Shown here in pieces: positions 856 through 61,392 of a stretch of DNA of 64,000 nt (position 1 is its first letter; each line of letters begins with the position of its first letter). The position numbers were made by a program, and so were the translations under genes. Source of the stretch: a virus; the IMG/VR virus record IMGVR_UViG_3300044678_003030, positions 29,957 to 93,956 of that record, one strand, 5' to 3'. Under the pieces are notes generated by a model. That model worked only from the letters and a program-made list of their open reading frames with translations, ran no database searches and had not been told where the DNA came from.

Positions 856-3800
856 GCCACTCCCACCGCTGGTCGTCTTTCTACGTCCCCGGCGACGCCT
901 ATCGGTACTGCGCGTGCGGCGCGATCGAGACGGTCTCGCCGGATGGCGAGCACGGGCCTGTGCCGGCCAAGGAGGAGGGATTCGTCCGTCGCCACATCGA
1001 GCGCCTGGAGAAGAGCGCGGAGGCGCTCAAGAAGACGCTTGGGCCCTTCACCTTCGAGATCGATCGGCCCGAAGGAACTACGAAGGCGTGGCCCGGTGGC
1101 AAGTCCTTTACGTACCCCGTCGACTACGGATTCTTTCCGAAGCTCGAAGGGGAGGACGGGGAGGGACTGGATGCGTTCGTGGGAGATGACCCGCACGGTC
1201 ACCTGGAGTCCTTCCAGAAGCTCAAGCCGAACAAGGACGGCAAGCTCGTCGCCGACGAGACGAAGTACCTGCTCGGCGTGAACGACCGTCAACGCGAGAC
1301 CATCTACAAGCTCTACGGGCGAGAGATCAACGCGCGTCGCGTGTACGACACATGGGAGGCGGTGGAGCGGTCGTTGGCGCGGTTCGAGAAGGAGGCGTCT
1401 GAGCCGGAGGAAACTCCGGTTTGGGAGAAGGACGTTCGCGACGCCGCCGGGGTTGCGCTCGCAGGGCTTGGCGCACGAAGTCTTGCGCATGGGGCTGCGG
1501 AGGACCTGCTAGGCGCGCAGAGGTTCTACCACGGTACTGGTGATGCAGCGGCAGCGGCGATTCGCCGTGATGGCCTTTTGGCTTCAATGGGAGGTAACCC
1601 CAACGGCAGTGCGTCTCTTTCGGGAGTCCAGTCTTACGTAAAGAATTCAAAGGGTCATGTACACGTCGGCACGGGCTTTTTAGGTGCGCAGGCGGCTCGC
1701 GGCTACGCCTCGCTCGTGGATGCCAAGGAGCGTAATCCGCTTCTTTCCAACGAAGGCGCAATGTACGCGTACCTGCGTGGGATGGGCCCTGGGCACAAAG
1801 GCACTGTTCTTCAGGGCGCTGTCCCGTACGAGTGGCTCTCCAGCAACTTTTCACCGGACCCTGATAGCGGCGGTAGCAGCGCTGCCCTCAAGGGGCAGGT
1901 GGACATCGGAGCCTCCCACATTTCAGACGGCGCCGTAGGTCTTCGAGACCTCTACAAGAATCGAGCTCCTGACCTCCTTGGGTACGTGAAGCGCAACCCA
2001 CGTCGTGTTGCGCATGGCGCCTTGATGGCCGGAGGGTCTTTGGCCGCTGTGTACGCTGCATATCGACTGGCCAAGATGATCCAGGACCGACACAGTAGCC
2101 CAGAGCAGGAGCCTGTTGTGGAAGCAAAGCTCGGAGCTGCCGATGCCCCCTCGAATCTTCTCGGACTCGTGGGCACGCCTCAGTACTACCTGACGCGCGC
2201 CGCTGACTTCCGTCGCCGACACCCTGATCTCCGCGCTCCTGACTACTACAACGAGTACGGCGATCGCTACGCCCACCGCTTCGAGAGCCAGACTCGTCCT
2301 CGGCTCTCTCCGGCCGGGCAGGCGTGGTTCGACAAGACCAAGCACGGCCTTCAGTATGCGATCGAGCAGAAGCGCCTCGAAGACCCTGAAGGGTTCGACG
2401 CCCTTGAGCGTGACCCCAAGGCGTTCCACCGCTTCGCGTACGACACGCACGGCCCGGTGTACCTGAACTCAGGGATTCGCAAGCTGCCGCTGCGCGACCT
2501 CATGCGCGTGGCGCGCACGCCAGACCTCAAGGATGTCATCAACCGAGATGGTCTACGTCTTGTGGGGCAGGTCTTGAATCCGTTCAACAAGGCGGCCTCG
2601 GTCAAGGAGGCGCGAGTCCCTACTCATGTGAAGCAGTACCGCCGCGCGCTTCAGATGTTGGCAGAAGGGCAACACGACTTCCACGGCACCGCGAATCTTC
2701 CTGGTGTTGTACGGACCGGTCGTGTTGTTGGCGGGAAGAATGACGCGTACCATACAGGCGGCAAAGCGTACTTTTCGCGCGGTTTTCCACTGGCTGAGTA
2801 CTTTGACTACGAGACCTCGAAGTACAACGATGGAGGGTTCGCCTTCCCTCGTGTACAGATGGACAAGAACAAAGCGGAGATCATTCCGGGGACACCTGCA
2901 ACCTTGCCGGTTCCCTACGTAGCTGCTTGGCACGCCCCCCTTCAACAGGGCGCTACCGTCTTTGTGACGTCTCCCGCTGCGAAAGTGCGCGAGGCAGCAA
3001 GCGCCGCGCAACGTAAGTTCAATCTGCGCCGCGTTGACCCCGAGGCTTACGCCCTCGCCGTTGAGACCCTGAAGGGCAACGTGTCTCCTGGTGCTTCCCA
3101 GCACATACTCAAGAACCTCGAAGGTCCGTATACCCCGGTTATGCCAGCGCCTTCAATTTCCGCCTCCTCTGTTGCAACCCCTCCCGCTGCGCCCTCTGTC
3201 TATTCCATCCTCAATCGCCGCAACGCCGCGATCGCAGGCGGTACCCTCGCCACGGCTGCCGCGCTGTACGGAGGCCACCGTTGGCTTCGTTCACGGCGTG
3301 AAAAGGAACAAGAAAAGGTCGCTGACGCAGTGGAACAAGACCCGTCCGAACAGCCGCCGAAGAAGTCCTGGCTACGTCGCAACGCGGCCCCGATTGCAGG
3401 GCTGACGACGGCAGCGGTAGTTGCACCGCTTCTCTATCGCTACCTGCGTAAGCAGCGACTGAGCAATGACCCCGCACTCCGCTCGATTCAAGAGGCATCG
3501 GGCGGCAGGTTCGGCCGCATCCTTGAAGGGCGGCAAGAGGCGATGTCTGCGCCACGTCGTTGGCTCGACCGATTGATCTACTCAGGTGGCGGCGATGTCC
3601 ACTACCAGGACAACCTCATCGAGGCGGCGCGCAAGAGTGGCAAGGTGCCGCAGGTTGAGGGGGTGCTCCTTCACAACGCGCCAGGGAAGCAGCTTGCACA
3701 GGGGGCCTCAAACCTTATCGCGAATCGTGATTCCGATGCGGTGTCGAGCATCTTTGACAACGGTAACAAGTGGCAGGAGTACAACATCTTCGAGCACTTT

Positions 3801-4862
3801 GCGCCGGGGTCCATGGGAAAGACCGAGAACGTTGCAGACGTTCTCGCTGACATGGGGCACAACCTCGGAGCTCGCAACCCGCGAGAGCGCGGACAGCAGG
3901 TCGAAGCCTTCCGTAAGGCCATGTCCAACAACGGCGCGCGTAGGCGAGACATGCTCGCGGAGCTTCAGAGTAACCTCCGTCAAAGGTTTGGGGACGGCTT
4001 CCTTCTCAAGGACGTCGACGCTGCTGCTACGGGGGGGAAGTTCCCCTCGGATCTGCACAACTTCACAGATCTTGTGAACGAGGATTCGCCTGCGGCGAAG
4101 ACTCTGATCAACGCGATCAAGGATCCGCGAAGTGTGATCGCGCAGTCGAAGCTGCCGCTCGCTCAAGGATCGTGGCTCGACCGGCAGTTTGCCAAGCTCC
4201 GTGGCCTGCCATCTACGCAGGAAGTTCGTGTCCATGTGATGAACGGTGCGGTCGCCCCGGACCTCACAGTGCCGCGCTTCTCTCCGACGATGTGGCTCAC
4301 CGGACGAAAGACGATGCGCGGCGCGGACCAGTACGCGCGTGATCTGCTTACGAAGTTGCCCGAGGAGCTTCAGCGCGGGACGTATGCGATGGACGTCGCA
4401 CCGCTCGTGGGTGGCGGGTACAAACTCATTGAGTCTAATCCTGGTTACCGTAGTGGTTTCTTGAGCCCCGGTAACCATCCGGTAATCGGACCTCTTCTGC
4501 ACAAGCAGTTCACTGGCCAGCACAGCCAAATGGTTTCTGGCCTTGGTGCCGGCGCGGGCGCTGTTGGCGGAGGGCTTACGGCAGCGGCTGGTGCGCGGTA
4601 CCTCGCCAACCGGCAGCAGCCGGAGCAAGAGTCTGAGCTTCACGGCGTGAAACAAGCCAGCGCCTTCGACGCCCTCAACTGGGTCCCCGCTCCTTTCCAG
4701 GGGCGCGTGCAGTCCCCGCAAGAAATCGTCTACGCCGCGCGCTCTACCCCTGCTCTCGCGGCGACACAGGAGAACCTTCGGCTGCTTCAGGTCGCCCAGG
4801 ACCCCTACGGCACCGGGTCTCCGACGCAGGGCGTCTCTCACCATCGACGTCATCACGGCTAG
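852..4862 (+). CDS. Polyvalent multi-domain protein: PPase-like, ART-like, unknown, second ART-like and ATP-grasp domains
   Basis: YPVDYGFFPKLEGEDGEGLDAFV (family I PPase-like); RFYHGT..IRRDGL and DFHGT (ADP-ribosyltransferase-like); NKW..FLLKD..QEVRVHV..AMDV..LIESNP (ATP-grasp); domains separated by K-x-A motifs and hydrophobic helices. Confidence 0.7.
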   Translation: MSHSHRWSSFYVPGDAYRYCACGAIETVSPDGEHGPVPAKEEGFVRRHIERLEKSAEALKKTLGPFTFEIDRPEGTTKAWPGGKSFTYPVDYGFFPKLEGEDGEGLDAFVGDDPHGHLESFQKLKPNKDGKLVADETKYLLGVNDRQRETIYKLYGREINARRVYDTWEAVERSLARFEKEASEPEETPVWEKDVRDAAGVALAGLGARSLAHGAAEDLLGAQRFYHGTGDAAAAAIRRDGLLASMGGNPNGSASLSGVQSYVKNSKGHVHVGTGFLGAQAARGYASLVDAKERNPLLSNEGAMYAYLRGMGPGHKGTVLQGAVPYEWLSSNFSPDPDSGGSSAALKGQVDIGASHISDGAVGLRDLYKNRAPDLLGYVKRNPRRVAHGALMAGGSLAAVYAAYRLAKMIQDRHSSPEQEPVVEAKLGAADAPSNLLGLVGTPQYYLTRAADFRRRHPDLRAPDYYNEYGDRYAHRFESQTRPRLSPAGQAWFDKTKHGLQYAIEQKRLEDPEGFDALERDPKAFHRFAYDTHGPVYLNSGIRKLPLRDLMRVARTPDLKDVINRDGLRLVGQVLNPFNKAASVKEARVPTHVKQYRRALQMLAEGQHDFHGTANLPGVVRTGRVVGGKNDAYHTGGKAYFSRGFPLAEYFDYETSKYNDGGFAFPRVQMDKNKAEIIPGTPATLPVPYVAAWHAPLQQGATVFVTSPAAKVREAASAAQRKFNLRRVDPEAYALAVETLKGNVSPGASQHILKNLEGPYTPVMPAPSISASSVATPPAAPSVYSILNRRNAAIAGGTLATAAALYGGHRWLRSRREKEQEKVADAVEQDPSEQPPKKSWLRRNAAPIAGLTTAAVVAPLLYRYLRKQRLSNDPALRSIQEASGGRFGRILEGRQEAMSAPRRWLDRLIYSGGGDVHYQDNLIEAARKSGKVPQVEGVLLHNAPGKQLAQGASNLIANRDSDAVSSIFDNGNKWQEYNIFEHFAPGSMGKTENVADVLADMGHNLGARNPRERGQQVEAFRKAMSNNGARRRDMLAELQSNLRQRFGDGFLLKDVDAAATGGKFPSDLHNFTDLVNEDSPAAKTLINAIKDPRSVIAQSKLPLAQGSWLDRQFAKLRGLPSTQEVRVHVMNGAVAPDLTVPRFSPTMWLTGRKTMRGADQYARDLLTKLPEELQRGTYAMDVAPLVGGGYKLIESNPGYRSGFLSPGNHPVIGPLLHKQFTGQHSQMVSGLGAGAGAVGGGLTAAAGARYLANRQQPEQESELHGVKQASAFDALNWVPAPFQGRVQSPQEIVYAARSTPALAATQENLRLLQVAQDPYGTGSPTQGVSHHRRHHG
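3290..3302. promoter_or_regulatory. TTCAC-N3-GTGAA site
   Basis: TTCACGGCGTGAA. Confidence 0.85.
4639..4651. promoter_or_regulatory. TTCAC-N3-GTGAA site
   Basis: TTCACGGCGTGAA. Confidence 0.85.
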
Positions 4863-5204: not shown

Positions 5205-5743
5205 ACAAAGAAGGTTGGGTCGAAGTCATCACAGGGCCGATGTTCTCGGGTAAGACCGAGGCTTTTGTTCACCGGGTGAACAGGGCGACGCGGCAGCGGC
5301 AGCTTGTTCGTGTCTTTCGCCCTACGGCCGATTCTCGCACGAAGGAGATTATTTCCCACTCGGGTCACAAGCTCCACCCCTCTTCGTACCTCAAAGAGGC
5401 GTACATCGCCGACCTCCTGGATGCCAAGTACGGGACGTCGATGGTGGCCATCGACGAGGCACAGTTCTTCCCTCCGAGCATTGTGCCTTGGGTCAAGGGG
5501 GCGTCCGAGCGCGGGTTGCGCGTGATTATCGCCGGGCTTGATCGTGATTATCGTGGCGAGGCTTTCGGGTCGATGAAGGACCTCATCTTCCTCGCTGATC
5601 ATGTCGATAAGCTACCGGCCGTCTGTGCTGTTTGCTGCCGTGATGCCACGCGCACGCAGCGCAAAGATCCGAGCGGGCCTGTCACCCTCGTCGGCGCGGA
5701 AGACCTCTACGAGCCTCGCTGCAAGCTCTGCCACCGATTCTAA
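5201..5743 (+). CDS. tdk: Thymidine kinase (type II)
   Basis: GPMFSGKT Walker A, IDEAQFF, AGLDRDYRGEAF, CxxC...YEPRCxxC; start placed at GTG 5201 rather than 4976. Confidence 0.95.
   Translation: MNKEGWVEVITGPMFSGKTEAFVHRVNRATRQRQLVRVFRPTADSRTKEIISHSGHKLHPSSYLKEAYIADLLDAKYGTSMVAIDEAQFFPPSIVPWVKGASERGLRVIIAGLDRDYRGEAFGSMKDLIFLADHVDKLPAVCAVCCRDATRTQRKDPSGPVTLVGAEDLYEPRCKLCHRF
5268..5280. promoter_or_regulatory. TTCAC-N3-GTGAA site
   Basis: TTCACCGGGTGAA. Confidence 0.85.
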
Positions 5744-6567: not shown

Positions 6568-6570
6568 GCC

Positions 6571-7801: not shown

Positions 7802-7814
7802 TTCACGCGGTGAA
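7802..7814. promoter_or_regulatory. TTCAC-N3-GTGAA site
   Basis: TTCACGCGGTGAA; contains endolysin stop codon. Confidence 0.85.
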
Positions 7815-9849: not shown

Positions 9850-11550
9850 TTACTCCGGTCGACAACCAGCGTCTGGGCCGGCCGTCGGTTGCATGGCGGC
9901 GTCGAATGCCACCAGCGGGTCAGGGCTTGCGGTAGACGTTACAGGGTCGGCGGGACGGGTGCCATCAACAGACGTGATGCCTGCGATGACAGGGTCTTCT
10001 TCGCTATCGCCAAAGAAGGTCTCAAACGCTCGCAAGGCCCGAAGCACGGGCTCGGGATCGGGGCCTACGGCGACGAGCACAAACCCCGTGACGTACTCTG
10101 AGCCGAATGTGAAGTCGGGTCGGTCGGGGCTTTCGTCGAGGTCGAATGCGCGCGTCATGTCGCCAAGGAAGGTGCCGACGCTGCCCTGCCCTTGGCCCAC
10201 GTAGCAGTGTGCGCCGGCCTGCGTGTTCATGAGGAGGGCGTTGATTCGTTCAAGATAGCGCGTGAGCTCGTCGGCCTTCTTTGTGTAGCGATCAGCTTCT
10301 CGGGAGAGGAATGTGATCACGGCGTTCGTGTCGTCGTTCACCGTCTTGACCATGTCGCCGAAGACTTGAACCTCTTCCTTCACCCGGTCGATGAGGCCAG
10401 ACACAGCCGGGAACACCCTCGCGACGCTCGGTGTCCGCATCCAGTCAGGAGGTGTCCCGTTCGAAGCTGCGCGGAGGGTACGGCGTCGGTCGAGGCGTAC
10501 CGCAGCGCAAGACGAGAGCGCCGTGAAGCCGAGGTCGGTCTCTCCGCTGCCGCTGTCAGAACGAACCCGGAATGCGACGTTGTAGAAGTAGTCGACACCC
10601 TCATCGAGGTTCGCAGACTCCACCCATCGAGACGTGATGCCGTCGTATCGGTGCAGGGCTACGACTTCTGAGCCGTATTCGCCCTGGATGCCTTGCGAGA
10701 GTTCGCGATTGCCGAACAGGTCTTGGACGACTTGAACGGTACGGACACGAAAGTCGCGCGATCGGATCACTGCGTAGTGCGTCGCTGAGAGCGTGGTGTC
10801 GCCGTCTACGCGGGTGGTCGGCGACATACGATCCCACGTGATCACGACTCGGTTTTGCCTACCCGACGGCCGAGCTCTCACGTTCCTTGGCACGAAGGAC
10901 ACGGCGTTGCGATCGGCCGGGACCGTGTTGGCGTCGGCACCAAGGCCGAGCAGGCGCGAGAAGAACGCGGCCACTGACGCGGCGGCGGTGATGTCCTGAG
11001 CGCCTCCGACGACAATTGTGTAGGCCCAGTAGCTGTCTCGGGTGAACTGAGGCCGGTTCTCGTCGCCAGCGTCGTGCAGGCTATCGGCGACGCATCGCAG
11101 GAACCACGCGTTGCCGCCAACGAAGGCAGCCTCAGGGTCGAAGGCTTGCCGCCACGTCGGGAGATTCTTGAGCTCAGCCGCTGAGCTTACGCCCTTGAGG
11201 ATGTTCGCTACAGGGGCGTCGACGAACGTGCTTGGCCCGCCTTCGGGCGCCGGGATCAGGCCGAGCAACCCCTTTTTTGGAAGCGGCACCACCAAGGCGT
11301 AGACGGCAGCGTCGTCGAGCGCGGCGTCGAGCGCGGCGTTGGCTGTCGCGATCAGCCCTTGGACTGCCGCGTTGAACGCCATGACGTTCGGTTGGTCCAG
11401 GCTCGACGCGAGCGCTCGGGCAGCTTCAAGGGCTACGCGCGCCCCTTGAATCCCGGCTTTCACTGCGTGAAGCCCTTCACTGACCGCCCCGCCCGCTGCG
11501 GAGAGCTCAGCCGGTGGTTTGACGCTTAGGCTCTTCCAAAGTCCGGCCAC
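9850..11550 (-). CDS. Hypothetical protein, probably virion/baseplate-associated (566 aa)
   Basis: Long ORF in the tail operon; beta-rich central region (VVITW...YFYNV). Confidence 0.6.
   Translation of the reverse strand: MAGLWKSLSVKPPAELSAAGGAVSEGLHAVKAGIQGARVALEAARALASSLDQPNVMAFNAAVQGLIATANAALDAALDDAAVYALVVPLPKKGLLGLIPAPEGGPSTFVDAPVANILKGVSSAAELKNLPTWRQAFDPEAAFVGGNAWFLRCVADSLHDAGDENRPQFTRDSYWAYTIVVGGAQDITAAASVAAFFSRLLGLGADANTVPADRNAVSFVPRNVRARPSGRQNRVVITWDRMSPTTRVDGDTTLSATHYAVIRSRDFRVRTVQVVQDLFGNRELSQGIQGEYGSEVVALHRYDGITSRWVESANLDEGVDYFYNVAFRVRSDSGSGETDLGFTALSSCAAVRLDRRRTLRAASNGTPPDWMRTPSVARVFPAVSGLIDRVKEEVQVFGDMVKTVNDDTNAVITFLSREADRYTKKADELTRYLERINALLMNTQAGAHCYVGQGQGSVGTFLGDMTRAFDLDESPDRPDFTFGSEYVTGFVLVAVGPDPEPVLRALRAFETFFGDSEEDPVIAGITSVDGTRPADPVTSTASPDPLVAFDAAMQPTAGPDAGCRPE
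11459..11471. promoter_or_regulatory. TTCAC-N3-GTGAA site
   Basis: TTCACTGCGTGAA. Confidence 0.85.
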
Positions 11551-13477: not shown

Positions 13478-14830
13478 TCATAGGACCACGTCTTCATTCT
13501 TCATCGAGTTCAGGTCGATGCTCAGCGGGGAGCCGATGAGCGGCGCGAGCGACGGGGATGCGACAGGTCCTGGGTGCACATGAGCCCCGACGAGGGCCTT
13601 CGTGTTGTTGTAGTCGGCTTGGAGCGCCTCAAGCTGCGTACGCAGCGCCTCGTAGTTCACGGCGTGAAAACGGGGGTTGCGGCCGAGCTTTACTCCATCA
13701 GGAATGGTGGTCTTGAGGATGACCGACCCAGTGCCCATCTCGACGGTGTAGTCGCCTGTTCTCGTCCGGTGTGTCTGTCCGCCCGTTACGACGGTCACGT
13801 CGAGACCGCCGCCGTAGGTGAAGTTGCCGCGCCCTGCGACTGTCGCGCGATCGTCGCGCAATACGGTCGAGGATCTGTCTTGGCCGACAGAGAGCGCGTC
13901 GTTGCCTGAGACTTCAGCGCGGCGCCCTGCCTCATAGAGCGATGACGCGGCGCCTGCGATACGAATCGTGTCAGTCCCGGCGACTTGAGTATCGCGGTCA
14001 CCGGCGATTCGGACAGGCGCGCTTCCTCCACCATCTGTTTGGTCGATGCCGCCTGCGGCAAAGATCTCCAGCCGGCCTTCAGCGCTGACGTGCCAGCGGA
14101 ACAATGTTTGACCGCGCGGTGTCGTGATCTCGAAGTTCACGAGGTCCCCGAGGTGCCCCACATCCAGGTGGATTGTGTAGCGAGATTCGTCGGGCCCTGT
14201 CTGGGTGAGCTGGTCTGCGCCGCCGCGCCACGTGAAGGACGTCTTGCCGTCTTCGTTGATGACTCTGGACTCTCCCATCCAGGTGAGGATGCTCATCACC
14301 CCTGCGATGAGCTGGACGTGGTCGTTGTCACCAAAGAGGCGTAGCTGCGCGAGCGGCCCTCCGCTCAACAGCGCCACAGGTCCTTGCCCGAGCGCCAATG
14401 CTGCGCCACCCGGGCCACGGAGCACTGTGTCTCCCGGCAACAGGTCGTTCGGCTCATCACCGGCGCGTGCTGTGGCGCCGTAGTTACGTGCGAGGTTCGG
14501 GTCTTGGCCACCGTAGCCGCTGACACCCATGACGGACTCTTCGCGGCGACCCTCGGTGCGGCGACCCTCAGGGGGGAGGATGCCCACGATGTAGGGCTCT
14601 CCGAGAGAGTGGTCGACGACGACAGGTGTGCCGTTTGGAATGAGACCGAGGTCTCCTGGAAACGCGCGCATGCGTGGCATGGCAGCGACGCCGTTGGCGA
14701 TGGCAACTTGATAGACGTGTCCGTCAGCATCACAGCTCACCACAGATCCGCGCTCGCGCCGGTTGTGTGGTGAGGCTGTCGGTGATGGAGGTGGACTCGG
14801 AGGAGCGGCAGGTGAACGTCGGCGAACCAT
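13478..14830 (-). CDS. Baseplate central spike (gp5/gpV/VgrG-like)
   Basis: OB-like N-terminus (GTPVVV..PYIVG), VxG beta-helix repeats, C-terminal HVH metal-binding tip; likely start MVRRRS. Confidence 0.65.
   Translation of the reverse strand: MVRRRSPAAPPSPPPSPTASPHNRRERGSVVSCDADGHVYQVAIANGVAAMPRMRAFPGDLGLIPNGTPVVVDHSLGEPYIVGILPPEGRRTEGRREESVMGVSGYGGQDPNLARNYGATARAGDEPNDLLPGDTVLRGPGGAALALGQGPVALLSGGPLAQLRLFGDNDHVQLIAGVMSILTWMGESRVINEDGKTSFTWRGGADQLTQTGPDESRYTIHLDVGHLGDLVNFEITTPRGQTLFRWHVSAEGRLEIFAAGGIDQTDGGGSAPVRIAGDRDTQVAGTDTIRIAGAASSLYEAGRRAEVSGNDALSVGQDRSSTVLRDDRATVAGRGNFTYGGGLDVTVVTGGQTHRTRTGDYTVEMGTGSVILKTTIPDGVKLGRNPRFHAVNYEALRTQLEALQADYNNTKALVGAHVHPGPVASPSLAPLIGSPLSIDLNSMKNEDVVL
13656..13668. 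promoter_or_regulatory. TTCAC-N3-GTGAA site
   Basis: TTCACGGCGTGAA. Confidence 0.85.
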
Positions 14831-15661: not shown

Positions 15662-16264
15662 TCAGTGAGCCTGCTGCGGGCGTAGCGCTGAGTGGAGCAT
15701 ACCCGCCCCCATGACACCGAGACCGCCGACGTCGTAGAGGCTCATCGAGTCACCGTGTCGGACTTTGTCAGCCGAAGTGAGCCCGAGTGTCGCCAAGCCG
15801 AAAGCGTTGAGCGCCGTCGTCAGGTCTTGGTTGTCGTGGATACGGTCGGAGAGGTACGGCAGCAGAAAGGCGCCGTAGCCGGCGGCGTTGGCGGCGCGGT
15901 GCCACGCCGGATCGTCATTCGCGCGCTTCGTGAGCCCACCGAGCGACAGTGTTTCACTCAGTGAAGCGCTCAGCTTGACGGTGGACTGCGGCTTGAACGC
16001 CGGCTGCGAGGTCGTCATCTTGAAAGACCCGGCAGGGTCCTTGAAACTGTCTTTGATGTGACTCGCGTTGAAGCCAAGCGTCGACGCAAGGCCCGTTCCC
16101 GACTGGCCGATGAGCCCGCCTACGAGCGGTACCTTGCTGCGCGCGAAGTTGTACGCGAACTGCCCCGCACCGCTGGAGAGAGCCTTGGACCCGAAGGCCT
16201 TGGCTCCGGCCAGCGCGAGACCGCCGGCCAGGGCGGTCTTTTCGCAGAGACCGCCGAGGGGCAT
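15662..16264 (-). CDS. Hypothetical K-x-A-containing protein with hydrophobic segments
   Basis: EKTA and TKRA each followed by Gly/Ala-rich hydrophobic modules. Confidence 0.6.
   Translation of the reverse strand: MPLGGLCEKTALAGGLALAGAKAFGSKALSSGAGQFAYNFARSKVPLVGGLIGQSGTGLASTLGFNASHIKDSFKDPAGSFKMTTSQPAFKPQSTVKLSASLSETLSLGGLTKRANDDPAWHRAANAAGYGAFLLPYLSDRIHDNQDLTTALNAFGLATLGLTSADKVRHGDSMSLYDVGGLGVMGAGMLHSALRPQQAH
15953..15965. promoter_or_regulatory. TTCAC-N3-GTGAA site
   Basis: TTCACTCAGTGAA. Confidence 0.85.
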
Positions 16265-19583: not shown

Positions 19584-19596
19584 TTCACCGCGTGAA
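19584..19596. promoter_or_regulatory. TTCAC-N3-GTGAA site
   Basis: TTCACCGCGTGAA; contains a stop codon. Confidence 0.85.
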
Positions 19597-21104: not shown

Positions 21105-21117
21105 TTCACTCCGTGAA
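21105..21117. promoter_or_regulatory. TTCAC-N3-GTGAA site
   Basis: TTCACTCCGTGAA; intergenic. Confidence 0.85.
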
Positions 21118-22661: not shown

Positions 22662-23075
22662 TCAGCGCCGGCTGTTGATGAGGTCTTCACCGAAGTTGTC
22701 GAACGCCTGCTTGTAGCGCTCCGCGCGCGTGCCCTGCGGGGCCTCACGCCGAGCCGACGGGTCAGAGCGTTCACTCGGTGAACCGAGGTCGTTCACGCGA
22801 AGGGAAGCCGCAGCGAGCTTCTCGACGGCGGCGCGCGCAGCGGGGTTCTCGGCCACTTCGTCAGGGAGGTCTTCACCCGTGGCGCGGCGGTAGGCGCTGC
22901 CGAAGGACTCGTCTTCTGCCTTCTTCACAGGCATCGCCTGTGGCTGCGCAGCTTGAACCGCTTTGGGAGCGGGAACTTCCTTCGCCTTCTTCGGCAGTTC
23001 CTTCATCGCCTTGGCCGTCATGACATCGGTCAGGGCTTCCAGGGCGCTTGCGATCTTTTCGTGGAGGTCGTTCAT
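22662..23075 (-). CDS. Scaffold-like/internal head protein
   Basis: Helical Ala/Lys/Glu-rich; EKIA, VKKA, EKLA. Confidence 0.6.
   Translation of the reverse strand: MNDLHEKIASALEALTDVMTAKAMKELPKKAKEVPAPKAVQAAQPQAMPVKKAEDESFGSAYRRATGEDLPDEVAENPAARAAVEKLAAASLRVNDLGSPSERSDPSARREAPQGTRAERYKQAFDNFGEDLINSRR
22770..22782. promoter_or_regulatory. TTCAC-N3-GTGAA site
   Basis: TTCACTCGGTGAA. Confidence 0.85.
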
Positions 23076-23434
23076 CGGGGCACTCGCTTCAAAAGGCTAA
23101 GCGCCCCGAGGGCGCGTACAGCGGCAGCACGCTTCTCGCGCAAGTCGAAGGCCCGATCGATGCCGGCGACGCGCACGGAGTCGGCGAGAGCACGGACCTT
23201 GCCGACAGCAGACCCGTCACAGGACGCGATCTTCTCGACGAGCTCTGCGCGACGAGCGGAGAGCGCGGCGTAGTCAGCCGTTTTCACCGCGTGAACGTCA
23301 GCGATCGTGAACGGTAGGTCCCCCGCTACACGCACTGCCTGTGAGAGCGCGCCCAAGGCCCGAGCGTACGGGTCGTCGTGTGCGCGCTTCTCCGCTCCAT
23401 CGAGGTCACGAAGCGTGTCAGCCAATGTACCCAT
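23072..23434 (-). CDS. Internal head protein candidate
   Basis: Start MGTLAD; EKRA x2, VKTA, EKIA. Confidence 0.55.
   Translation of the reverse strand: MGTLADTLRDLDGAEKRAHDDPYARALGALSQAVRVAGDLPFTIADVHAVKTADYAALSARRAELVEKIASCDGSAVGKVRALADSVRVAGIDRAFDLREKRAAAVRALGALSLLKRVPR
23283..23295. promoter_or_regulatory. TTCAC-N3-GTGAA site
   Basis: TTCACCGCGTGAA. Confidence 0.85.
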
Positions 23435-32644: not shown

Positions 32645-32649
<5 letters not shown>

Positions 32650-41900: not shown

Positions 41901-44006
41901 CCCCTTCCGGTAGTCCTCGATCTCTTCCTTGAGATCATCCCAGGAGGCGTACTCGACGCGGTTGACACAGCGAGTCTTCGGCTTGCGCTCGATCTGACGC
42001 AGGACCGTGTCGACCTTCTCCATGGGGACGCCGACGATGAACTTCACATCGGCCGGCTTCCACTCACCATCTTCGTTCTGTTCGTCGGTGTCGACGGAGA
42101 CCAGGGCGCCGTCAGGGTCGTCACCGACCCAGAAGTCCAGGGAGTCGCCATCAGGGCCTTCGAAGCCCGGGAGGTAGCCATAGTCGCAGGGGAAGGGATG
42201 ACCCCAGGGCTTCTCGCCCTTCTCGATCTCGATTTCGAAGGTGAAGGGCCCGTGCTTCTTGGACTGCGCCACCGGGCGGTCCGCGAGCTTCTCTTCCTCT
42301 GCGGCCCTCTTGGCGCGGCGCGGCTCAATGTAGATGAACCCGTGTTCGATCTTGCGCACAATGCCGCTCACGGGCGCGAGCGGCACAACCATGCGGCCGT
42401 AGAAGTCCTCATAGGACCCCCCGTCCGGGTGTTTGACCTGCACCAAGGGCGCCTCCCGCTGAAGCAGTGGCAGACCCTGTGTCTGCATCTTGGAGCCCAT
42501 GATCGCACGGTTCCCCTGGATCGAGTGCAGGAGAGGGATCAGGCTCGTGGCCGGCGAGTAGGTGTGCGAGACGTGGAGCTGCTGATAGTCAACGTCCTTG
42601 GCGTCGACCTTCTGGACCTGCCCTTGGTGAAGCGCGTCTACACGCCCCTGCATGCGCTGATGCGGGAAGGCGATGACTTTGCTCATCATGTCCGAGGCGT
42701 TCACGAACTCGGTCTTGTTGGTCCGTGCGTTCCTGAGCGGTGTGTAGAGGTTGCCCTCTTCGTCTCGGTGAGCGGCGATCGTGGCGCGGATGTCGACGCC
42801 TGCGTGGCCGCTCTCTGGCGTGCGGATCGGGTCGAGGATGCCGAAGTGCGTCGCGTGCGTGAGGCGTGTTGAAAAAGGGATCGCGCGCTCACTGGGAATG
42901 CCGCCCTCTCCGAGCGCTGTGACCTTCACCGAGTGATCGAGGAGCTCAAGCGGGTTGATTCCCGTGGGCACCGCTGAAAGGGCGCTCGACGTGATGAACT
43001 GGCGCAGCGGCTGGGAGAAAGGAGCTGGCTTGAGAGAGCCTCGGATCTCCTGCTTGCCGTTGAGCGCCATGCGAGCCTTCGGAGCCCATTCGCGCGCGGT
43101 GAGCTTCACGCGCTCTGCGAGAAAGTCGTCCACGCTGTGGAATGTCTTGAACGCGAGCGAGTCGGCGTCGTCCTCCGGGTCTTGACCCCTGTGCACGCGG
43201 AGCAGCTTTTGCGCTGCGGCGAGGAGCGCAGGCGGGGTGACCTTGTCGTGTGACGCCCCGAGCGTGATGCGCGTGACGTGCGCGTCCATCACGGTGTTTC
43301 CGAAGCGCTTGATGACCTCTGCGAGCTTCTCGGTGTGGCTCGCCTTGGCATTGAACACGGACTCGTGCGCGAGCTTTTGGTAGAGCTTCGCGATCGAGAT
43401 CTCCTCCTTGCCGCCGAAGAGCGCCTTGTTGGCGTCAGCGATGGGAGCGCCGAGCTCGCGCGCGATGACCTCATGGGTGACCCCGAGGGCGCGTAGCACA
43501 GGGTAGAGCGGGATGTTCGTCGAGTCGTAGACGAGGTAGAACGCTGACTTCGCCGGGTCGATCGTGACGTTGAAGTTCGCACCCTTGGAGAGGTTGAACG
43601 TCGTGTGCAGCTCCCCGTTCGCGCTCCGCTGCGTGTACGCGCCAGGACGGCGACGCAGCATGTTCGCGATCTGGTACTCGTTGCCGTCCATCAGGATGGT
43701 GTGGCGTTCGGAGAACCACGGGAGGTGCGTGAGGGTGAAGTTGCGCGCCTCGTTGACGATCTTCCCGTCGCCGTCTTTCAGGACGAGCGTCCCCTTCACG
43801 GGCTCAGAGAGCGAGTCGCCGGTGAGGAGCGCGTGCTTCTGCTCCTCAGGGGAGAAGTCTCGCGCGAGCACCTTGATGTCCTTGACCTCCAGGGTGCGAC
43901 CCTTGAGATCGACGGGGAATGCGCGTTCGAGCTCCCTGACGACTTTCCCGCGCACATTTTCGCGCAGCGAGTGGGCGTCGGTGAGTACAGGTGACAGGAC
44001 AGGCAT
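38934..44006 (-). CDS. rpoB: Phage multisubunit RNA polymerase, beta fused to beta' N-terminal part, with PPase-like insertion
   Basis: beta: HFGILDPIRTPESG, NRAIMGSKMQTQ, NSNDAVVIS, GDKLANRFGGKGVV, SRIN, GLGKMEVDAL; beta': KPEKGGLF, VPVIPPIFRP, LLNRAPTLHR, catalytic FNLDYDGD. Confidence 0.92.
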   Translation of the reverse strand: MPVLSPVLTDAHSLRENVRGKVVRELERAFPVDLKGRTLEVKDIKVLARDFSPEEQKHALLTGDSLSEPVKGTLVLKDGDGKIVNEARNFTLTHLPWFSERHTILMDGNEYQIANMLRRRPGAYTQRSANGELHTTFNLSKGANFNVTIDPAKSAFYLVYDSTNIPLYPVLRALGVTHEVIARELGAPIADANKALFGGKEEISIAKLYQKLAHESVFNAKASHTEKLAEVIKRFGNTVMDAHVTRITLGASHDKVTPPALLAAAQKLLRVHRGQDPEDDADSLAFKTFHSVDDFLAERVKLTAREWAPKARMALNGKQEIRGSLKPAPFSQPLRQFITSSALSAVPTGINPLELLDHSVKVTALGEGGIPSERAIPFSTRLTHATHFGILDPIRTPESGHAGVDIRATIAAHRDEEGNLYTPLRNARTNKTEFVNASDMMSKVIAFPHQRMQGRVDALHQGQVQKVDAKDVDYQQLHVSHTYSPATSLIPLLHSIQGNRAIMGSKMQTQGLPLLQREAPLVQVKHPDGGSYEDFYGRMVVPLAPVSGIVRKIEHGFIYIEPRRAKRAAEEEKLADRPVAQSKKHGPFTFEIEIEKGEKPWGHPFPCDYGYLPGFEGPDGDSLDFWVGDDPDGALVSVDTDEQNEDGEWKPADVKFIVGVPMEKVDTVLRQIERKPKTRCVNRVEYASWDDLKEEIEDYRKGSKTASYGRIWANHAAMNAGLAGRDVRYMFNYPGADGALASAGKRLPRLAADVVYGVLPPQLTHDDSLDDLNTGSLGEWFMHGYAPWENPSPAEVHSVKEAARRERELIKVPYSDNFPFPSKTRLHHTLSVKANDTVEMGQMLGDSNFTRNGTLASGLNARVAYMPYYGLNSNDAVVISEGFAKRMTSEHMYREVFPLNATIELSAKRHKVYFGAKYQPSQYAQLDETGVVKKGAKVNHHDLLVAGLAKAQVTGTDLMLGKISKTLTKPWQEVSLSWEHGTQGEVVDVVRTPTQIAVLVKTHEQMQVGDKLANRFGGKGVVAKIVSDKEMIKDSAGNPVELLMTSAGVVSRINPAQLHEALAGKIAEKTKKPIFFDNASSENAIDWVERLAKEHNVSGYEHVHDPVSGRKIVGPDGQGVFVGRSFIFKLFKSTDTNFAGHGVGPYDANEQPLKQGGEEGAKGLGKMEVDALLAHNARGMLSDAANIRGQKNEAFWRAIQLGQPLPANRPSFAFNKFQAMLEGAGVKVRKDGSKFRLLPATDADIMARSSGAVQNSKTLIAKNLKPEKGGLFDPFLTGGTEGTLYSHVDLHEAMPNPVFEEPIRRLLGLTEKRFTDLLKEKGGGHIKKELASINIDAKLKELEGKLPMLKASDLNNAVKQIKYLRALKAEGLRPENAYVLSKVPVIPPIFRPITQQKNNPSQLMVADANKLYGHLMDVNDAVKDAVLDSDVPKHRAALYNAVGAVFGTHTVDDQKLQKEEVKGFLTQVSGQGSPKGGFFQRKLMKRQQDVSGRGTAVPDGNLHMDAVSLPEDMLWQMFDKLLVARLVRKGYSALHARELVDKRAPAAKQCLVEETKERPVLLNRAPTLHRFGIVAAYAQPTMGKTIRVSPFVEKGFNLDYDGDTLQVHVPLTRAGIDDAKRMTMSHLLLSDQTPNKLMAFPQHEAIIGITHALKYTPNKAQPVRRFKTEAEAVAAWRRGEVKVDDPVEIG
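41608..41620. promoter_or_regulatory. TTCAC-N3-GTGAA site
   Basis: TTCACCGAGTGAA; at the edge of the RNAP insertion. Confidence 0.85.
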
Positions 44007-44313: not shown

Positions 44314-44326
44314 TTCACGGGGTGAA
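44314..44326. promoter_or_regulatory. TTCAC-N3-GTGAA site
   Basis: TTCACGGGGTGAA; intergenic. Confidence 0.85.
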
Positions 44327-46547: not shown

Positions 46548-46560
46548 TTCACTCCGTGAA
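46548..46560. promoter_or_regulatory. TTCAC-N3-GTGAA site
   Basis: TTCACTCCGTGAA; at the portal/helicase divergence. Confidence 0.85.
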
Positions 46561-48670: not shown

Positions 48671-49213
48671 ATGGACATCACACTCAAGACCCCTGAGCTC
48701 GCGGAGGCTCTGCGCCTCTACCTTGAATCCCGGGGGTTGGTAGTCCGAAACGACACCGGGGTCGTTGTTCGCAACGGCGAGGACGGCGAGCTCCGGGTCG
48801 AGATCACCGGGGTATCACTCGGTGAAAGTCGCCCTGCCGCAACGGCACCGAGCCGCACGCCGCCACCGCGAGAGGAGCCGGCCGAGGTGCCCCTACGCCC
48901 CCACAACAGGCCGCAGACGGCGGCCATGGTGAGCATGCCTGACGCTTCCGAGTGGAAGCCAGGGCAGCTCGAACCGACCGAGACCGTCTCCATTCCTGTC
49001 GACAGGTTTCGCGTGGAGAAGGTGCCTCCAGGTGAAGTGCCTAACGCACGTGCGCTAGGTCGCCCCGTGGAGCGTATCGTGCCCGCCTACGACAACGACG
49101 GCGTCGCTGCGGAGTATCAAGTACACCCGGTGGAAGGGCTCCTCCCGAGCTCGGCGTCGGGGCCGGTTCCCGGGGAGCGTGGCAGCATGAACGACATGCC
49201 GAACGACTTCTGA
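48671..49213 (+). CDS. Hypothetical protein
   Basis: 180-aa ORF; Pro-rich C-terminal half. Confidence 0.6.
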   Translation: MDITLKTPELAEALRLYLESRGLVVRNDTGVVVRNGEDGELRVEITGVSLGESRPAATAPSRTPPPREEPAEVPLRPHNRPQTAAMVSMPDASEWKPGQLEPTETVSIPVDRFRVEKVPPGEVPNARALGRPVERIVPAYDNDGVAAEYQVHPVEGLLPSSASGPVPGERGSMNDMPNDF

Positions 49214-49298: not shown

Positions 49299-49616
49299 AT
49301 GACGCGACGACAGACACGGACGGCCGGCTTGTTGCACATCGAACGCATGGAAGCCGTTCGTGGGAACCTCGCCGCCAAGCGCAAGGCGGGCGGCGGCGAG
49401 CACTTCGCCGATGACCATCTCTTTCGAAAGCTCTCAACTGTGCTGTTTACGGCGTACGAAACTTCTGGCCTTTCACCGCGTGAATGTGCCATGGAGTTCT
49501 ACGGCGCCTTCGCTCACCTCTTGAACGGCAAGCCGGTAGAAACGCTACCGGCGCCGTCTCTGGAGCCCGAGGTCCACGCCGAGCTCAAGGCGTTGGCCGC
49601 TACGTCCAATGACTGA
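49299..49616 (+). CDS. Hypothetical protein
   Basis: ORF directly upstream of the ParB-like gene; start uncertain. Confidence 0.5.
   Translation: MTRRQTRTAGLLHIERMEAVRGNLAAKRKAGGGEHFADDHLFRKLSTVLFTAYETSGLSPRECAMEFYGAFAHLLNGKPVETLPAPSLEPEVHAELKALAATSND
49472..49484. promoter_or_regulatory. TTCAC-N3-GTGAA site
   Basis: TTCACCGCGTGAA; about 145 bp upstream of parB. Confidence 0.85.
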
Positions 49617-50897: not shown

Positions 50898-51746
50898 CTA
50901 GAGCAACTCGCTCACGTCTGTGACACCGAGCGTGTCCAGGTACACCTTGAGCTTCCCCAGCCCTGCGTCTCGGAGCGCGGCGAGTTCGAGCGTCGTATAG
51001 ACCGACCCATCGATCGCGAAGAGCCTGAGAGCGAGCTCGTCAAGGTCGTGCTCCCCGTCTCCGATAAATCCGTAGATGTAGGAGAGGACGAGGCGTTCAC
51101 GGCGTGAAAGTCCGGCCTTGACCATGTGCCGAACGAGCGGGGCCACGTCTGACGGGCTGGCGTCGCTAGCCAGTGTCTCAGGGTCGACCGAGGCGAACGT
51201 AGGCTCCTCGAACGAGTAGTCACGCCGCTGCCCGAGGGCCATCTCAGCCTCTTCGACTCGGCGTTGTCTTCGGTTGGCCTTGCGGACGTGGTTCGGGACG
51301 TGGACCAGTTGGTCGCGGTTGAGGTACTCCTGGATTCTGACGTTGATCCAGTAGTCGGCGTAGGTGAGGAACCGCGTCCCGTGTGCTACGTCGAAGCGGT
51401 ATACGGCATCCATCAGGCCGCAGTTGCCCGCGCTGACGAGCTCCCTGAGGAGCTGTTCGTCGCGCGTGTATTTTCGCGCCACCTTGATCACGAAGCGGAG
51501 GTACCCCCTCGGGATCGTCTGCTCCAGCCGCGTGACCTTAGCTTTCCAGACCTTGAGGTCGCTCTCGATCCGGCGCCGCTTCTCTCCTGCTGGCAGCTTG
51601 TTGAGCTTCTTCTCGGCGCTCTCGACGCTTTGACGCGCGACCAACAGGTTGGTGAAGTTCTCTCTTTCTTGCGCGGCGGTAGGCTGTGTCTCACGCCCGA
51701 CCTCCAAGAAGTAGACGGACGCGATGCGGTCCTCACGTTGACTCAC
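50898..51746 (-). CDS. Sigma-70 family RNA polymerase sigma factor
   Basis: LRFVIKVARKY, ELVSAGNCGLMDAVYRFD..GTRFLTYADYWI (region 2), LSRRERLVL (region 4); GGAGG RBS. Confidence 0.9.
   Translation of the reverse strand: MSQREDRIASVYFLEVGRETQPTAAQERENFTNLLVARQSVESAEKKLNKLPAGEKRRRIESDLKVWKAKVTRLEQTIPRGYLRFVIKVARKYTRDEQLLRELVSAGNCGLMDAVYRFDVAHGTRFLTYADYWINVRIQEYLNRDQLVHVPNHVRKANRRQRRVEEAEMALGQRRDYSFEEPTFASVDPETLASDASPSDVAPLVRHMVKAGLSRRERLVLSYIYGFIGDGEHDLDELALRLFAIDGSVYTTLELAALRDAGLGKLKVYLDTLGVTDVSELL
51096..51108. promoter_or_regulatory. TTCAC-N3-GTGAA site
   Basis: TTCACGGCGTGAA. Confidence 0.85.
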
Positions 51747-53167: not shown

Positions 53168-53180
53168 TTCACGCCGTGAA
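53168..53180. promoter_or_regulatory. TTCAC-N3-GTGAA site
   Basis: TTCACGCCGTGAA. Confidence 0.85.
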
Positions 53181-54280: not shown

Positions 54281-57200
54281 ATGGCGAAGAAGCCAGCAAC
54301 CAAAGGTAACAACTCACAAACGCACAAGCAGGGCAACGGCCTGTTTTCTCGGCTTGGTGCCGCGAAGATCAGGCAGGTTGTTGAGGCGCTCATTCCCTCG
54401 CTTGACCTGGACAAGCCCCGTTCTTTCATCTTCCGTGACGGCGACGTCCTTGAGACCAACTGCATCCTTCGAGACCACAAGGATGACACGCCCTCGTGCA
54501 AGATCGATTGCCGACGGGGCACGATCCACTGCTACGGCGCGGGCTGTGGCTATCACAGCTCAAACCTCTTGCAGTGGCTGCAAGACGCGACGGGGCTCTC
54601 CTTCAAGGAGATCGCGACACAGGTCCACACCGTCACGGGGGTGCGCGCTGTCAATGACAAGGTGACCAAAGAGCTGGAGGAGCTCGATGATCACCAGCAG
54701 ATGGTCACGCTCGCGATGCGGGTGTTCAATGAGCACCTCGCGCGGTGCATCAAGCCACCTACGGGAGAGCAGCCGTACGCGAGGGACTACTCTGCGCCGT
54801 TCATGTCTGTCATCAAGCACACGCTTGATTGGCTCTTTGTCGAGAGAGGGCGCGACCCGAAGCACGTCCTCTCTTTGCCCTACGGCATCCTCCCTTCGCA
54901 GGAGATGGCTGTGCGTTTCGCCAAGGACATCCTTGACCGGATGGCTGAGGGTTACGGCACGGCGCAGCGTGCGGCCAAGCTCTCACCAGAGCGCCGTACG
55001 AAGATCGAGGCGCTCTTCGAAGCGATGATGGAGGGGGTCGACACGCGGTGGATTCACTGCGTGACATTTCACACCGGCTACGGCCTTACGACGCCTGGGT
55101 GCATCCGACTCCGTCTGCCGCGTGATGACAAGACTGACGGGACGGACACGCTCCCCGGCTCGAAGTTTTCGCCCGATGACCCGATCGGTTACTTCGGCCT
55201 CTACCTACCTCAGTACCGGACCTTCTCCCCGCAAGAGGTCAAGGACCTGCATGTCATCGTCGTTGAAGGCGAGAACGACACGCTGGCCTACGTCGAGAAG
55301 CTACTCGACAGCGGGAAGGTCGGTGTACGCGTTGTGGCGTCCATCGGCAAGCACAACGGGCTAGACCCCCTCGTCGACGCGGGCATCCAGCGCGCCTACC
55401 TCTTTGGTGACGAGCCTTCGGAGGACTACGGCAAGGGCGAAGACTGGCTTCGTCACATGCTCGCGAGCTCAGAGCGCATCGACGCCCGCCCGTTTGTGGG
55501 CTGGCAGGAACTGCGTGAGGGGTCGCCCAAAGACCCTGATGACGCGATCCGTGCTCACGGCTTTGACAAGGTCTACGCGCTTACGGCGGGCGCCAACGCG
55601 CGGTACGCCTCGGCGGAAGCCTGGGCGCTGGATCGGCTCGTGGACAACACCGCTGGCCTCGGGGCCAGCGATATGCGCGAGAAGCTCCGGTGGGGCATTG
55701 AGTTTGGCAAGTGCGTACGAAATCATGCCTCCCTCTCGGTTTATCTTGAGCAGGCTGGCAGGGTCATCGGGATTCCTCCAGCGGCTCTTCGGCGTGAGCT
55801 CGTCAAGGTCGACAATACCGAGGAGGGCTACGTCGCGCGGCTCGCAGACGTGTTGCTTCACGAGTTTCACCGGACATGCCGAAACGACACCGACGGCAAG
55901 GGTGGCGGCTCAATCGAGCTCTTCCACCGTACAACACAGACGCGACTCGCGTTCTACCTCACCGACGGCAAGGGGATGCTCGCGCAGCTCTCGGCCGTGT
56001 TCGGTGACATGTGGCGCTTCTTCAAGGACCAAGTCGGTCTGCCGCCACAGTATGAAGACCCCAACCTCGACGGGGTACCTACGTTCGACTCGCTCCCGGA
56101 CAAGCTCCGCAACCTGACGGGCTATCTGGAGATGGCGATGCACACGGTGGCCCAGGGCATCCCTTCACGCAGTGAATGTGAGGAGATTGGCCAGGGCTGC
56201 CGGTTCATGGACGACCCGCAGCGCCCTGGGACCAAGGCGTTCTACGTGCTCAACGGCTTCCACGTCTACAAGGGCGTGGTCCGCAGCGAGCCGGAGGCGT
56301 CCGTTGATTGGGCCAAGCTCGCAGGCCCCTCCGACGGGAAGTACATCTTCCTCGTCGACAAGGAGAAGACGTGGTGCGAGGAGATCCGCACCGTAGAAGA
56401 CCTCATCGCTGGCAACGCTGTGACGCGGGAAGACCTCCATGAAGCGTTGCGCGGCGCACAGGGCATCTTCCAGCGATTCTGGAGGCTCAAGCACGGGGAG
56501 ACTGACGCGCAGTTCCTCGCCTACCACCTTGCGGCTCTTGCGACCGGCTACGCCTACCGGACCAAGAGCGTCGTCCACTTCCTCGGAGACACCAACGCCG
56601 GAAAGTCGACGCTCCTCTCTTTCTTCGGCGGCACGCAGGTCCCCCGCTTTCGCCTCGTGGAAGCTGCTGACTACCGGCCGAACTACACAGCGGCGTTCAT
56701 CTGTCAGCACTGGGATCGTGTCACTACGGCGATGCTCCTCGACGAGTTCGAAGCGGAGCAGACGTCGAAGACTTCGCACAAGGGGATCCAGGTCGAAAAC
56801 ATCAGCGAGCTGATCCGACAGATCGCGTCTGAAGGCGGCACGCCAGCGAGCCGTGGCGGCAGCGACGGGCGCACGCGCACCTACCACCTTCACACGTTCG
56901 TGATGCTCACGAGCATGCTCAAGGCGACGCTTCCGCAGGACAACAATCGGCGCATGGCGATTGAGATCTACCGTAACGACGGCATCGCGCCGGAGGTCGG
57001 CGTGTTCGACGAAACGCCGCCTGAGCAGCTTCACCGCTGGCGACGCATGCTCTCGATCGGGCTCTTCAAGTTCGTGCCTGAGCTCATTCGACACTACGAG
57101 GCAGTTCGCACGAGCATCGCCCGCGTCAAGCGGGTCGACTTCAGCGTTCCTGCGCGGTTCACCGACAACCTCGTGCCGGCCGTCGCCGCCATGTCCTTCT

Positions 57201-57757: not shown

Positions 57758-57769
57758 CAAGAGGCACTG

Positions 57770-61114: not shown

Positions 61115-61392
61115 TTGTTCACCGCGTGAAAGTTCTCCATGACGGGGCCTTCTACGTGGGAGATTGGCCGGGCGCTGAGCCTGCTTTGAGTCTCCTTGAC
61201 GTCATCAAGGACGCCAAGAGACACTTCGCGAGATCGTGCAAGCTCGACTCGATCGACGTTTCGATCGACGCGACCCTTGTCACACAGGACCTGAATGAAG
61301 ACCATGCCGAAGCCGAACAACAAGAAGCCCTGGTCGTGGCTGGACACCGAGACCACGGGTCTCGACCCGACCATCTGCCCGAGGTCAGGTGA
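61111..61392 (+). CDS. Possible small hypothetical protein
   Basis: GTG overlaps polA stop; overlaps next gene by about 90 nt. Confidence 0.35.
   Translation: MIVHRVKVLHDGAFYVGDWPGAEPALSLLDVIKDAKRHFARSCKLDSIDVSIDATLVTQDLNEDHAEAEQQEALVVAGHRDHGSRPDHLPEVR
61118..61130. promoter_or_regulatory. TTCAC-N3-GTGAA site
   Basis: TTCACCGCGTGAA. Confidence 0.85.

Follow-up and report, generated by a model that had tools for sequence, protein, structure and literature searches.

An evenly spaced 13-bp palindrome across a large-phage contig and its candidate ParB-family reader

The palindrome array and its setting

The IMG/VR record IMGVR_UViG_3300044678_003030 is a viral contig of 93,956 bp, estimated by CheckV to represent ~53% of its genome. 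We analysed a 64,000-bp window of this contig (contig bases 29957-93956; positions below are those of the window unless the contig is named), across which a 13-bp interrupted palindrome, TTCAC-N3-GTGAA, is dispersed, and which also encodes a 399-amino-acid protein of the ParB/Noc/KorB family. All 25 exact copies of the palindrome listed in the original prediction were recovered at their positions, against 0.02 expected, and none of 100 dinucleotide shuffles contained more than one. The array continues past the window: the whole contig holds 40 copies (~0.03 expected), and a reversed control pattern occurs in none of its 93,956 bp. Among spacer lengths of 0-15 bp, only 3 bp is enriched in the contig, with every other length, and likewise the inverted arrangement of the arms, represented by 0-1 copies.

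The contig contains 40 exact copies, 7 with one mismatch and 42 with two, and this spectrum indicates a sharply defined site. Two of the one-mismatch copies lie in the window, at 42925..42937 (last base T) and 48814..48826 (first base A), equivalent to contig 72881 and 78770; as had been noticed, they are reverse complements of each other. The three spacer bases follow a rule (not A, then C or G, then not T) that holds across the 40 contig copies and 23 copies in a related contig. In the window, as predicted, the first base is never A, the last is never T, and the middle is C or G in 24 of 25 copies. The proposed outward extension to TTTCAC..GTGAAA stands in part, the outer flank being T or A in 53% of sites. 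We rejected a mobile repeat on finding no conservation of the flanks. Chance and codon bias were rejected by dinucleotide and synonymous-codon shuffles, respectively. The palindrome signal is real and acts on DNA. A single spacer-less, parS-like TTCACGTGAA lies outside the window, at contig 5420, with CACGTGAA 3 bp later; this may be chance or a distinct site.

The copies are spaced far more evenly than random placement would allow. Gaps in the contig average 2302 bp with a coefficient of variation (CV) of 0.41, whereas 100,000 random placements gave CVs that averaged 0.98 and were never lower than 0.54 (P<1e-5). The spacing is likewise too even for a null that draws 21 sites from gene junctions at random and puts 19 in coding DNA (P<5e-5). 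For the stretch from 25.4 to 49.5 kb, where gaps of 2.0-3.4 kb had been reported, we measured 1965-3397 bp. The widest gap is 4954 bp, versus ~9750 bp expected, and from the first to the last copy no position lies more than 2477 bp from a site (median 606 bp). One-mismatch copies do not fill the largest gaps. Projected at ~2.3 kb spacing, the full genome of ~177 kb would have ~75 sites.

On our own crude calls of 103 genes, which account for 90% of the contig, 14 of the 40 copies are intergenic, 7 straddle the end of a gene and 19 lie within genes. The straddling copies often provide a TGA stop or a GTG start, and the in-gene copies, found on both strands, use only the two frames that avoid an in-frame TGA. 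Eighteen copies lie wholly in coding sequence, whereas 500 rounds of synonymous-codon shuffling gave an average of 0.27 and never more than 3, a result that indicates selection on the DNA that overrides coding constraints. Long genes bear copies near their middles. Relative to the sense strand, the orientation of the spacer is unbiased (GCC 6 versus GGC 5; CGC 4 versus GCG 4). The sites are thus unoriented, unlike stoperators, and an RNA loop is not under selection.

The window illustrates each of these settings. Two in-gene copies (3290..3302 and 4639..4651) share the 1336-amino-acid gene at 852-4862 (+). Single copies lie at 5268..5280 in gene 5201-5743 (+), 13656..13668 in 13478-14671 (-), 15953..15965 in 15662-16264 (-), 22770..22782 in 22662-23075 (-), 23283..23295 in 23072-23434 (-), 25420..25432 in the 622-amino-acid gene 24358-26226 (-), and 27385..27397 in 26226-27650 (-). 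The RNA polymerase beta/beta' gene has its copy near mid-length (41608..41620), with 2386 bp to the 5' end and 2674 bp to the 3' end, and the copy at 56164..56176 lies in the middle of a 1158-amino-acid primase-like gene. Further in-gene copies flank the ParB-family gene, at 49472..49484 in a gene for a 105-amino-acid protein and at 51096..51108 in a sigma-70-like gene at 50898-51746 (-). At gene ends, the TCA of 7802..7814 is the stop codon of gene 7803-8594 (-), and the copy at 19584..19596, between genes, provides the stop codon of gene 19585-20277 (-). Copies at 11459..11471 and 29743..29755 lie at the 5' ends of genes 9850-11463 (-) and 29139-29747 (-), and that at 35378..35390 is 7 bp within the 5' end of gene 34432-35397 (-). 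Intergenic copies occupy 21105..21117, 32645..32657, 38211..38223 and 44314..44326, a divergent region by the SNF2 helicase gene (46548..46560), a place just upstream of the PD-(D/E)XK nuclease gene (53168..53180), and one 4 bp past the family-A DNA polymerase gene (61118..61130).

The contig encodes a 1690-amino-acid fused RNA polymerase beta/beta' protein with Rpb2 and Rpb1 domains (38934-44006, - strand) and further RNA polymerase pieces. It also encodes a sigma-70-like protein, an SNF2 helicase, a PD-(D/E)XK nuclease, an exonuclease, a primase-like protein and a family-A DNA polymerase. Judged by the RNA polymerase (~33% amino acid identity), the nearest cultured relatives are Salmonella phage Arash (180.8 kb) and Vibrio phages D69, D181 and D148 (~187 kb); a megablast search of 10 kb of the window against cultured phages gave no match. 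Arash is a myovirus without lysogeny genes whose RNA polymerase is packaged in the virion (PMC10585845). The 1690-amino-acid protein contains a weak inorganic-pyrophosphatase-like insert at about residues 597-664, and the 1336-amino-acid protein at 852-4862 has a similar weak match. Outside the window, contig 13586-14200 encodes a 204-amino-acid class I S-adenosylmethionine (SAM)-dependent methyltransferase (Methyltransf_25/11/23), the only methyltransferase recognised in the contig. A promoter-like 8-mer, GGTATAAG, occurs nine times in the contig (contig 7753, 8401, 9521, 10716, 20769, 22238, 35717, 36949 and 76810, the last three being window 5761, 6993 and 46854), against 1.25 expected. Eight of the nine boxes are on the + strand; we regard the 8-mer as a candidate phage promoter element, mostly not beside a palindrome.

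Conservation of the sites among related phages

Four lineages, including this contig, bear the identical motif at the same density, the G+C content of the relatives ranging from 58 to 67%. The closest, a metagenome contig (L002), has ~87% nucleotide identity to ours. Within the shared 21 kb, all seven sites are at the same place with identical spacers, although only 21% of aligned 13-mers are fully conserved (P=1.6e-5). A second relative, G001 (43.8 kb, G+C 58.5%), is collinear at 65-77% nucleotide identity and has 23 copies with a gap CV of 0.59 (P=0.004). The third, G002/G003, is a merged sequence of 47 kb (G+C 67%) that is collinear with contig 58.7-92 kb and has 19 copies with a CV of 0.51 (P=0.001). 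Its two parts, uncultivated viral genomes 3300015607_004726 and 3300015608_003661, are separate deposits from neighbouring samples; being 99.997% identical over 29 kb, they represent one phage. They came to light without recourse to homology, in a scan of IMG/VR for one version of the motif. Other routes to relatives yielded little. A related-locus search with a capsid-like alignment recovered only G001, and searches with the ParB-family protein alone, with its homologue P0017, and among genome contigs gave no match.

Comparison of these lineages reveals both persistence and turnover of sites. By protein-anchored mapping, ~11 of the 23 sites in G001 coincide with sites in our contig, as do ~7-10 of ~14 mappable sites in G002/G003, and six sites are common to all three lineages. 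The copies starting at 49472 and 53168 are kept in L002, G001 and G002/G003. Those at 29743, 32645 (with a different spacer) and 38211 are kept in G001 and G002/G003. The copies at 44314 and 46548 are kept in L002 and G002/G003, the former having a G001 counterpart within ~27 bp, and that at 51096 is kept in L002 and G001. Conservation is seen in G001 for the copies at 23283, 27385 and 35378, and in L002 for the mid-gene copies at 41608 and 56164; at 21105, a G001 copy lies within ~10 bp of the matching place. The remaining sites have been lost and replaced nearby, the nearest site lying at a median offset of 297 bp where the null gives 651 bp (P=0.004).

None of the ten arm bases changes at the sites shared by the three lineages, but the spacer varies (for example GAG/GAG/GAA or GCC/GCG/CCC), and only 8-32 of 50 flanking positions are identical. 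Judged from these alignments, invariant arms with drifting spacer and flanks form the footprint that would be expected of a symmetric dimer bound to two half-sites at a fixed distance. The proposal that selection operates on the DNA itself thus gains from several directions: copies lie in genes in two frames, on both strands and between genes, their arms and spacing are conserved across lineages, and they are under-dispersed. What selection acts on is coverage, as seen from the even spacing in three contigs, the mid-gene sites and the replacement of lost sites.

A candidate reader and competing explanations

The ParB-family gene, at 49629-50828 (+), lies within the replication module. Its product matches Pfam HTH_ParB, a helix-turn-helix (HTH) family, above the cut-off (E=6.6e-11). 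In sequence it also matches the solved structures of Spo0J, Noc, ParB and KorB. An hhalign comparison gave 98% to canonical ParB over residues 84-269, which cover Boxes I, II and III and the HTH; an ENLDR box is a further feature of the sequence. An AlphaFold model built with 38 homologues has a predicted local distance difference test (pLDDT) score of 90. Its best superposition is on KorB in the KorA-DNA complex 8qa9 (target-normalised TM-score, TMt, 0.70), with Caulobacter ParB-parS 6t1f at TMt 0.66 and Spo0J and Noc also matched. Foldseek retrieved structures of Noc, KorB and ParB bound to cytidine triphosphate (CTP) at E 3e-10 to 1e-7. DNA-binding domains superposed on the model gave TMt 0.80 for Noc 6y93 and 0.69 for KorB 1r71. 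By sequence match and structural model, then, the 399-amino-acid protein has a ParB-CTPase fold and a ParB-type HTH. This combination is commoner in bacteria than in phages, according to a published survey (PMC12704722).

The protein belongs to a distinctive subfamily. Residues 325-398 form a confident four-helix domain in the model that is conserved in the subfamily and has no match to Pfam PF23552, the family sought as a sign of a C-terminal dimerisation domain. A profile search of 1.8 billion representative proteins returned 17 matches at E<=1e-30 and 248 at E<=1e-10, including a graded series of full-length homologues that share this C-terminal domain and an unusual Box II. In the region of residues 123-127, Box II reads GRRR (homologues P0014-P0056) rather than the canonical GERR, with Arg in at least 90% of 38 aligned members. 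Of 55 GC-rich loci matched by a degenerate DNA pattern for AGRRRVRAA, none codes for a member of the family. The recognition helix reads VSQT(I/L)S, compared with canonical VANxLR, and its core is kept in all motif-bearing lineages. The glutamate of GERR corresponds to E102 of Caulobacter ParB. Replacing E102 with alanine abolishes CTP hydrolysis and locks the clamp (PMC8367383). By analogy, the clamps of the GRRR subfamily may be long-lived by nature or regulated in a different way.

Protein and motif occur together. Each motif-bearing lineage encodes a homologue of the ParB-family protein (87% identical in L002, 56% in G001 and 47% in G002/G003). In Arash and D69, both with complete genomes, we found neither the motif nor, by de novo scan, any comparable dispersed palindrome, and nothing that matched HTH_ParB or ParB_N. 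The motif is also unchanged across phages of 58-67% G+C, which favours a phage-borne reader over a host one. The original prediction had inferred binding sites for a dimeric protein acting genome-wide. Arm conservation, unbiased orientation, even spacing and the presence of an HTH protein wherever the motif occurs all argue for this.

On balance, we consider it probable that the palindromes are the specific loading or binding sites of the phage's own ParB/Noc/KorB-family protein, which would cover the whole genome. Its co-occurrence with the motif makes this protein a candidate for the binder. Each subunit of a dimer would read one 5-bp arm, TTCAC, and sites every ~2.3 kb would enable it to occupy the entire chromosome. 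In the likeliest scheme, ParB would load at each site as a nucleotide-dependent clamp and spread 1-2.5 kb toward the next, giving near-continuous cover. CTP binding and sliding by the phage protein, like closure of the clamp and its diffusion from the site, are suggested by analogy with ParB, Noc and KorB. Even spacing maintained by selection would let the cover extend over the whole chromosome where roadblocks intervene. KorB, which loads at scattered 13-bp palindromic OB operators, can slide as far as 1.5 kb to promoters (PMC11790492), a reach of the same order as the half-spacing here.

Several observations weigh against this assignment. The ParB_N match, at 15.8 bits, falls below the Pfam cut-off. 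The Arg in Box II replaces the Glu needed for CTP hydrolysis, and CTPase-driven cycling may not apply. Given the non-canonical recognition helix, the identity of the arms with parS half-sites is unusable as evidence. All positive cases fall in one clade, which makes the co-occurrence one evolutionary event, supportive and not decisive. Finally, ~47% of the genome is missing and ~80% of the contig proteins have no recognisable family, where another reader could hide.

This last point leads to the strongest alternative, in which a different symmetric DNA-binding protein reads the sites (an unrecognised phage protein, or a host factor that is recruited or titrated) and ParB has some other role. 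The many contig proteins that match no family and the missing part of the genome leave room for such a protein. The recognition helix of the ParB-family protein is non-canonical, and the palindrome shares its 5-N3-5 geometry with matS, whose reader is MatP rather than a ParB. Counter to this, a Pfam scan of 99 contig proteins of at least 60 amino acids (E<=0.001) found no MatP and no other HTH or ribbon-helix-helix family. Across phages that differ in G+C content and probably in host the motif is invariant, and the ParB-family protein accompanies it in every lineage and is absent where it is absent. We therefore regard another reader as unlikely.

Less probable still, to the point of being improbable, is that the palindromes are targets of a sequence-specific enzyme, either a nicking or cutting endonuclease or a base modifier, that marks or processes phage DNA at intervals. 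The core CAC-N3-GTG is a typical interrupted palindrome of the type II restriction kind, as in DraIII, and the 40:7 ratio of exact to one-mismatch copies is enzyme-like. A PD-(D/E)XK nuclease is encoded next to the ParB region, and the contig also has the generic SAM methyltransferase. Furthermore, ParB-like proteins activate phage thymine dioxygenases (PMC13229309). However, cutting or nicking of both strands every 2.3 kb would fragment the genome, and an enzyme gives no reason for even spacing or compensatory turnover. The Pfam scan of contig proteins found no DNA-methyltransferase family, only the generic SAM type. A separate search for a Tet/JBP dioxygenase also gave no match, a weak absence because the same search missed every control genome. 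In addition, the dioxygenase-linked ParBs lack an HTH (PMC13229309), unlike the protein encoded here.

Least probable of all is a transcription or RNA element (a promoter, operator, terminator, or RNA hairpin for a processing or translation factor): about half of the copies lie at gene boundaries, some over ribosome-binding regions or start or stop codons, two are 17-38 bp upstream of a GGTATAAG box, and the palindrome yields equal hairpin arms from either strand, but 18-19 copies are in genes, often in the middle of long ones, the hypothetical hairpin has a 5-bp stem and 3-nt loop with no T-run after it, the loop shows no sense-strand bias and is free to vary at orthologous sites, only 2 of 9 boxes have a palindrome within 50 bp, and the spacing is evener than that of the gene-junction null. 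An intrinsic terminator or promoter element in particular was rejected, there being no U-tract, half of the sites in genes, and no consistent link to GGTATAAG.

If the palindromes do load the phage's own ParB-family protein, what might the coat be for? We infer its purpose, in order of preference, as organising or compacting replicating phage DNA together with shielding it; as global control of transcription in the manner of KorB; and, least likely, as partition. Classical segregation is least supported because we found no ParA gene and no ParA-binding motif. Searches for ParA (AAA_31, CbiA) had no match in this contig or G001, both being incomplete, so that a distant parA is possible, and the LG(R/K)GL motif does not occur in the ParB sequence. 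Transcriptional control would fit the tail-to-tail arrangement of the ParB and sigma-factor genes and the site, present in all lineages, 157 bp upstream of the parB start.

Two neighbours of the ParB gene are of interest in their own right. The sigma-70 region-2 protein (50898-51746, - strand), whose gene is tail-to-tail with that for ParB, holds a palindrome conserved in relatives; Arash has a virion-associated sigma factor and no ParB. The 105-amino-acid protein encoded 13 bp upstream of parB (49299-49616, + strand) has no recognisable family, and its gene holds a palindrome conserved in all lineages. By analogy with KorA, it is a candidate partner of ParB.

More speculatively, the GRRR box raises the idea of a phage chromatin, in which ParA-less ParB proteins acting as long-lived clamps would load at ~75 even sites and coat the genome of a large phage of the lytic type from end to end. 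We hold this only tentatively, and think it doubtful in its full form. Such a coat would separate phage DNA from the host nucleoid in a ParB-DNA condensate. The condensate could serve to protect against host nucleases and defence systems, or to organise replication, transcription and packaging. If true, phage chromatin would be a protein-only alternative to the nucleus of jumbo phages.

The CTP clamps of the ParB family have known roles in segregating chromosomes and plasmids, in nucleoid occlusion and in silencing plasmid genes, where they act from few sites or from sites in an irregular layout. In the literature we found no description of an evenly spaced, genome-wide array of ParB-type sites in a phage. 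This virus appears to tune the number and spacing of its sites such that no part of the genome is more than ~2.5 kb from one, and to keep the lattice by replacing lost sites, even where this constrains protein-coding sequence. Should the link to ParB hold, it would represent a new, whole-genome use of the clamp. The array would then be a natural system for measuring how far clamps travel, and GRRR a natural catalytic-box variant for the study of clamp lifetime. It would further prompt the question of whether a ParB coat shields or organises the DNA of large phages that form no nucleus. Together with the small protein that matches it, the 13-bp site could also find use as an orthogonal pair for labelling DNA.

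Comparison with known systems

Among described multicopy sites, matS of Escherichia coli has the same outline: a 13-bp palindrome of 5-N3-5 layout, in many copies, that organises a large DNA domain. Geometry is common to matS and the phage site, whereas the arm sequences differ, and matS sites occur only in the terminus region, at intervals of ~35 kb. The 99 scanned phage proteins, which represent ~53% of the genome, include no recognised member of the ribbon-helix-helix class to which MatP belongs.

The stoperators of cluster A mycobacteriophages such as L5 resemble the array in number (>20 13-bp sites), density, the location of many sites in short intergenic gaps, and an HTH reader encoded by the phage (PMC9283540). 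Stoperators are, however, asymmetric, read by a monomer and oriented with transcription (PMC9283540), whereas the phage sites are palindromic and unoriented, with many in genes. Oriented stoperators were rejected on these grounds: the palindrome is perfect and has no orientation bias relative to the sense strand. We also saw no sign of lysogeny.

The phage ParB has the domain order and Boxes I-III of the chromosomal systems ParB-parS and Noc with its binding sites (NBS), and in Noc there is already a ParB paralogue that has no ParA and many scattered sites. The arms TTCAC and GTGAA are the inner five bases of each parS half-site. Yet parS and NBS are 16-bp palindromes without a spacer, compared with one spacer-less TTCACGTGAA and 40 spaced copies in the phage contig, and parS sites are few and clustered near the origin whereas the phage array extends over the whole contig. 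Compared with ParB and Noc, the phage protein also has different recognition-helix residues, no LG(R/K)GL and, as read from its sequence, no Noc-like N-terminal amphipathic helix. A canonical parS/ParABS system was rejected in view of the 3-bp spacer, the whole-contig dispersal, and the failure to find ParA or LG(R/K)GL.

The IncP plasmid RK2 has ~12 OB sites on 60 kb, without reported even spacing. Unlike RK2, the phage has ~75 projected sites that are strongly under-dispersed. The partners of KorB, namely the clamp-locking KorA or TrbA and the ParA protein IncC, were not found here among recognisable families. Box II is GERR in KorB and GRRR in the phage protein, and the phage replicon is large and has a lytic myovirus among its relatives. 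The operators also differ in layout, OB being 6-N1-6 (TTTAGC-G/C-GCTAAA) and the phage site 5-N3-5 (PMC11790492). Nevertheless, KorB-OB of RK2 is the nearest described system, since the two have in common a ParB-family CTPase fold with an HTH, a perfect 13-bp palindrome, and sites scattered over a mobile replicon, including far from promoters (PMC11790492).

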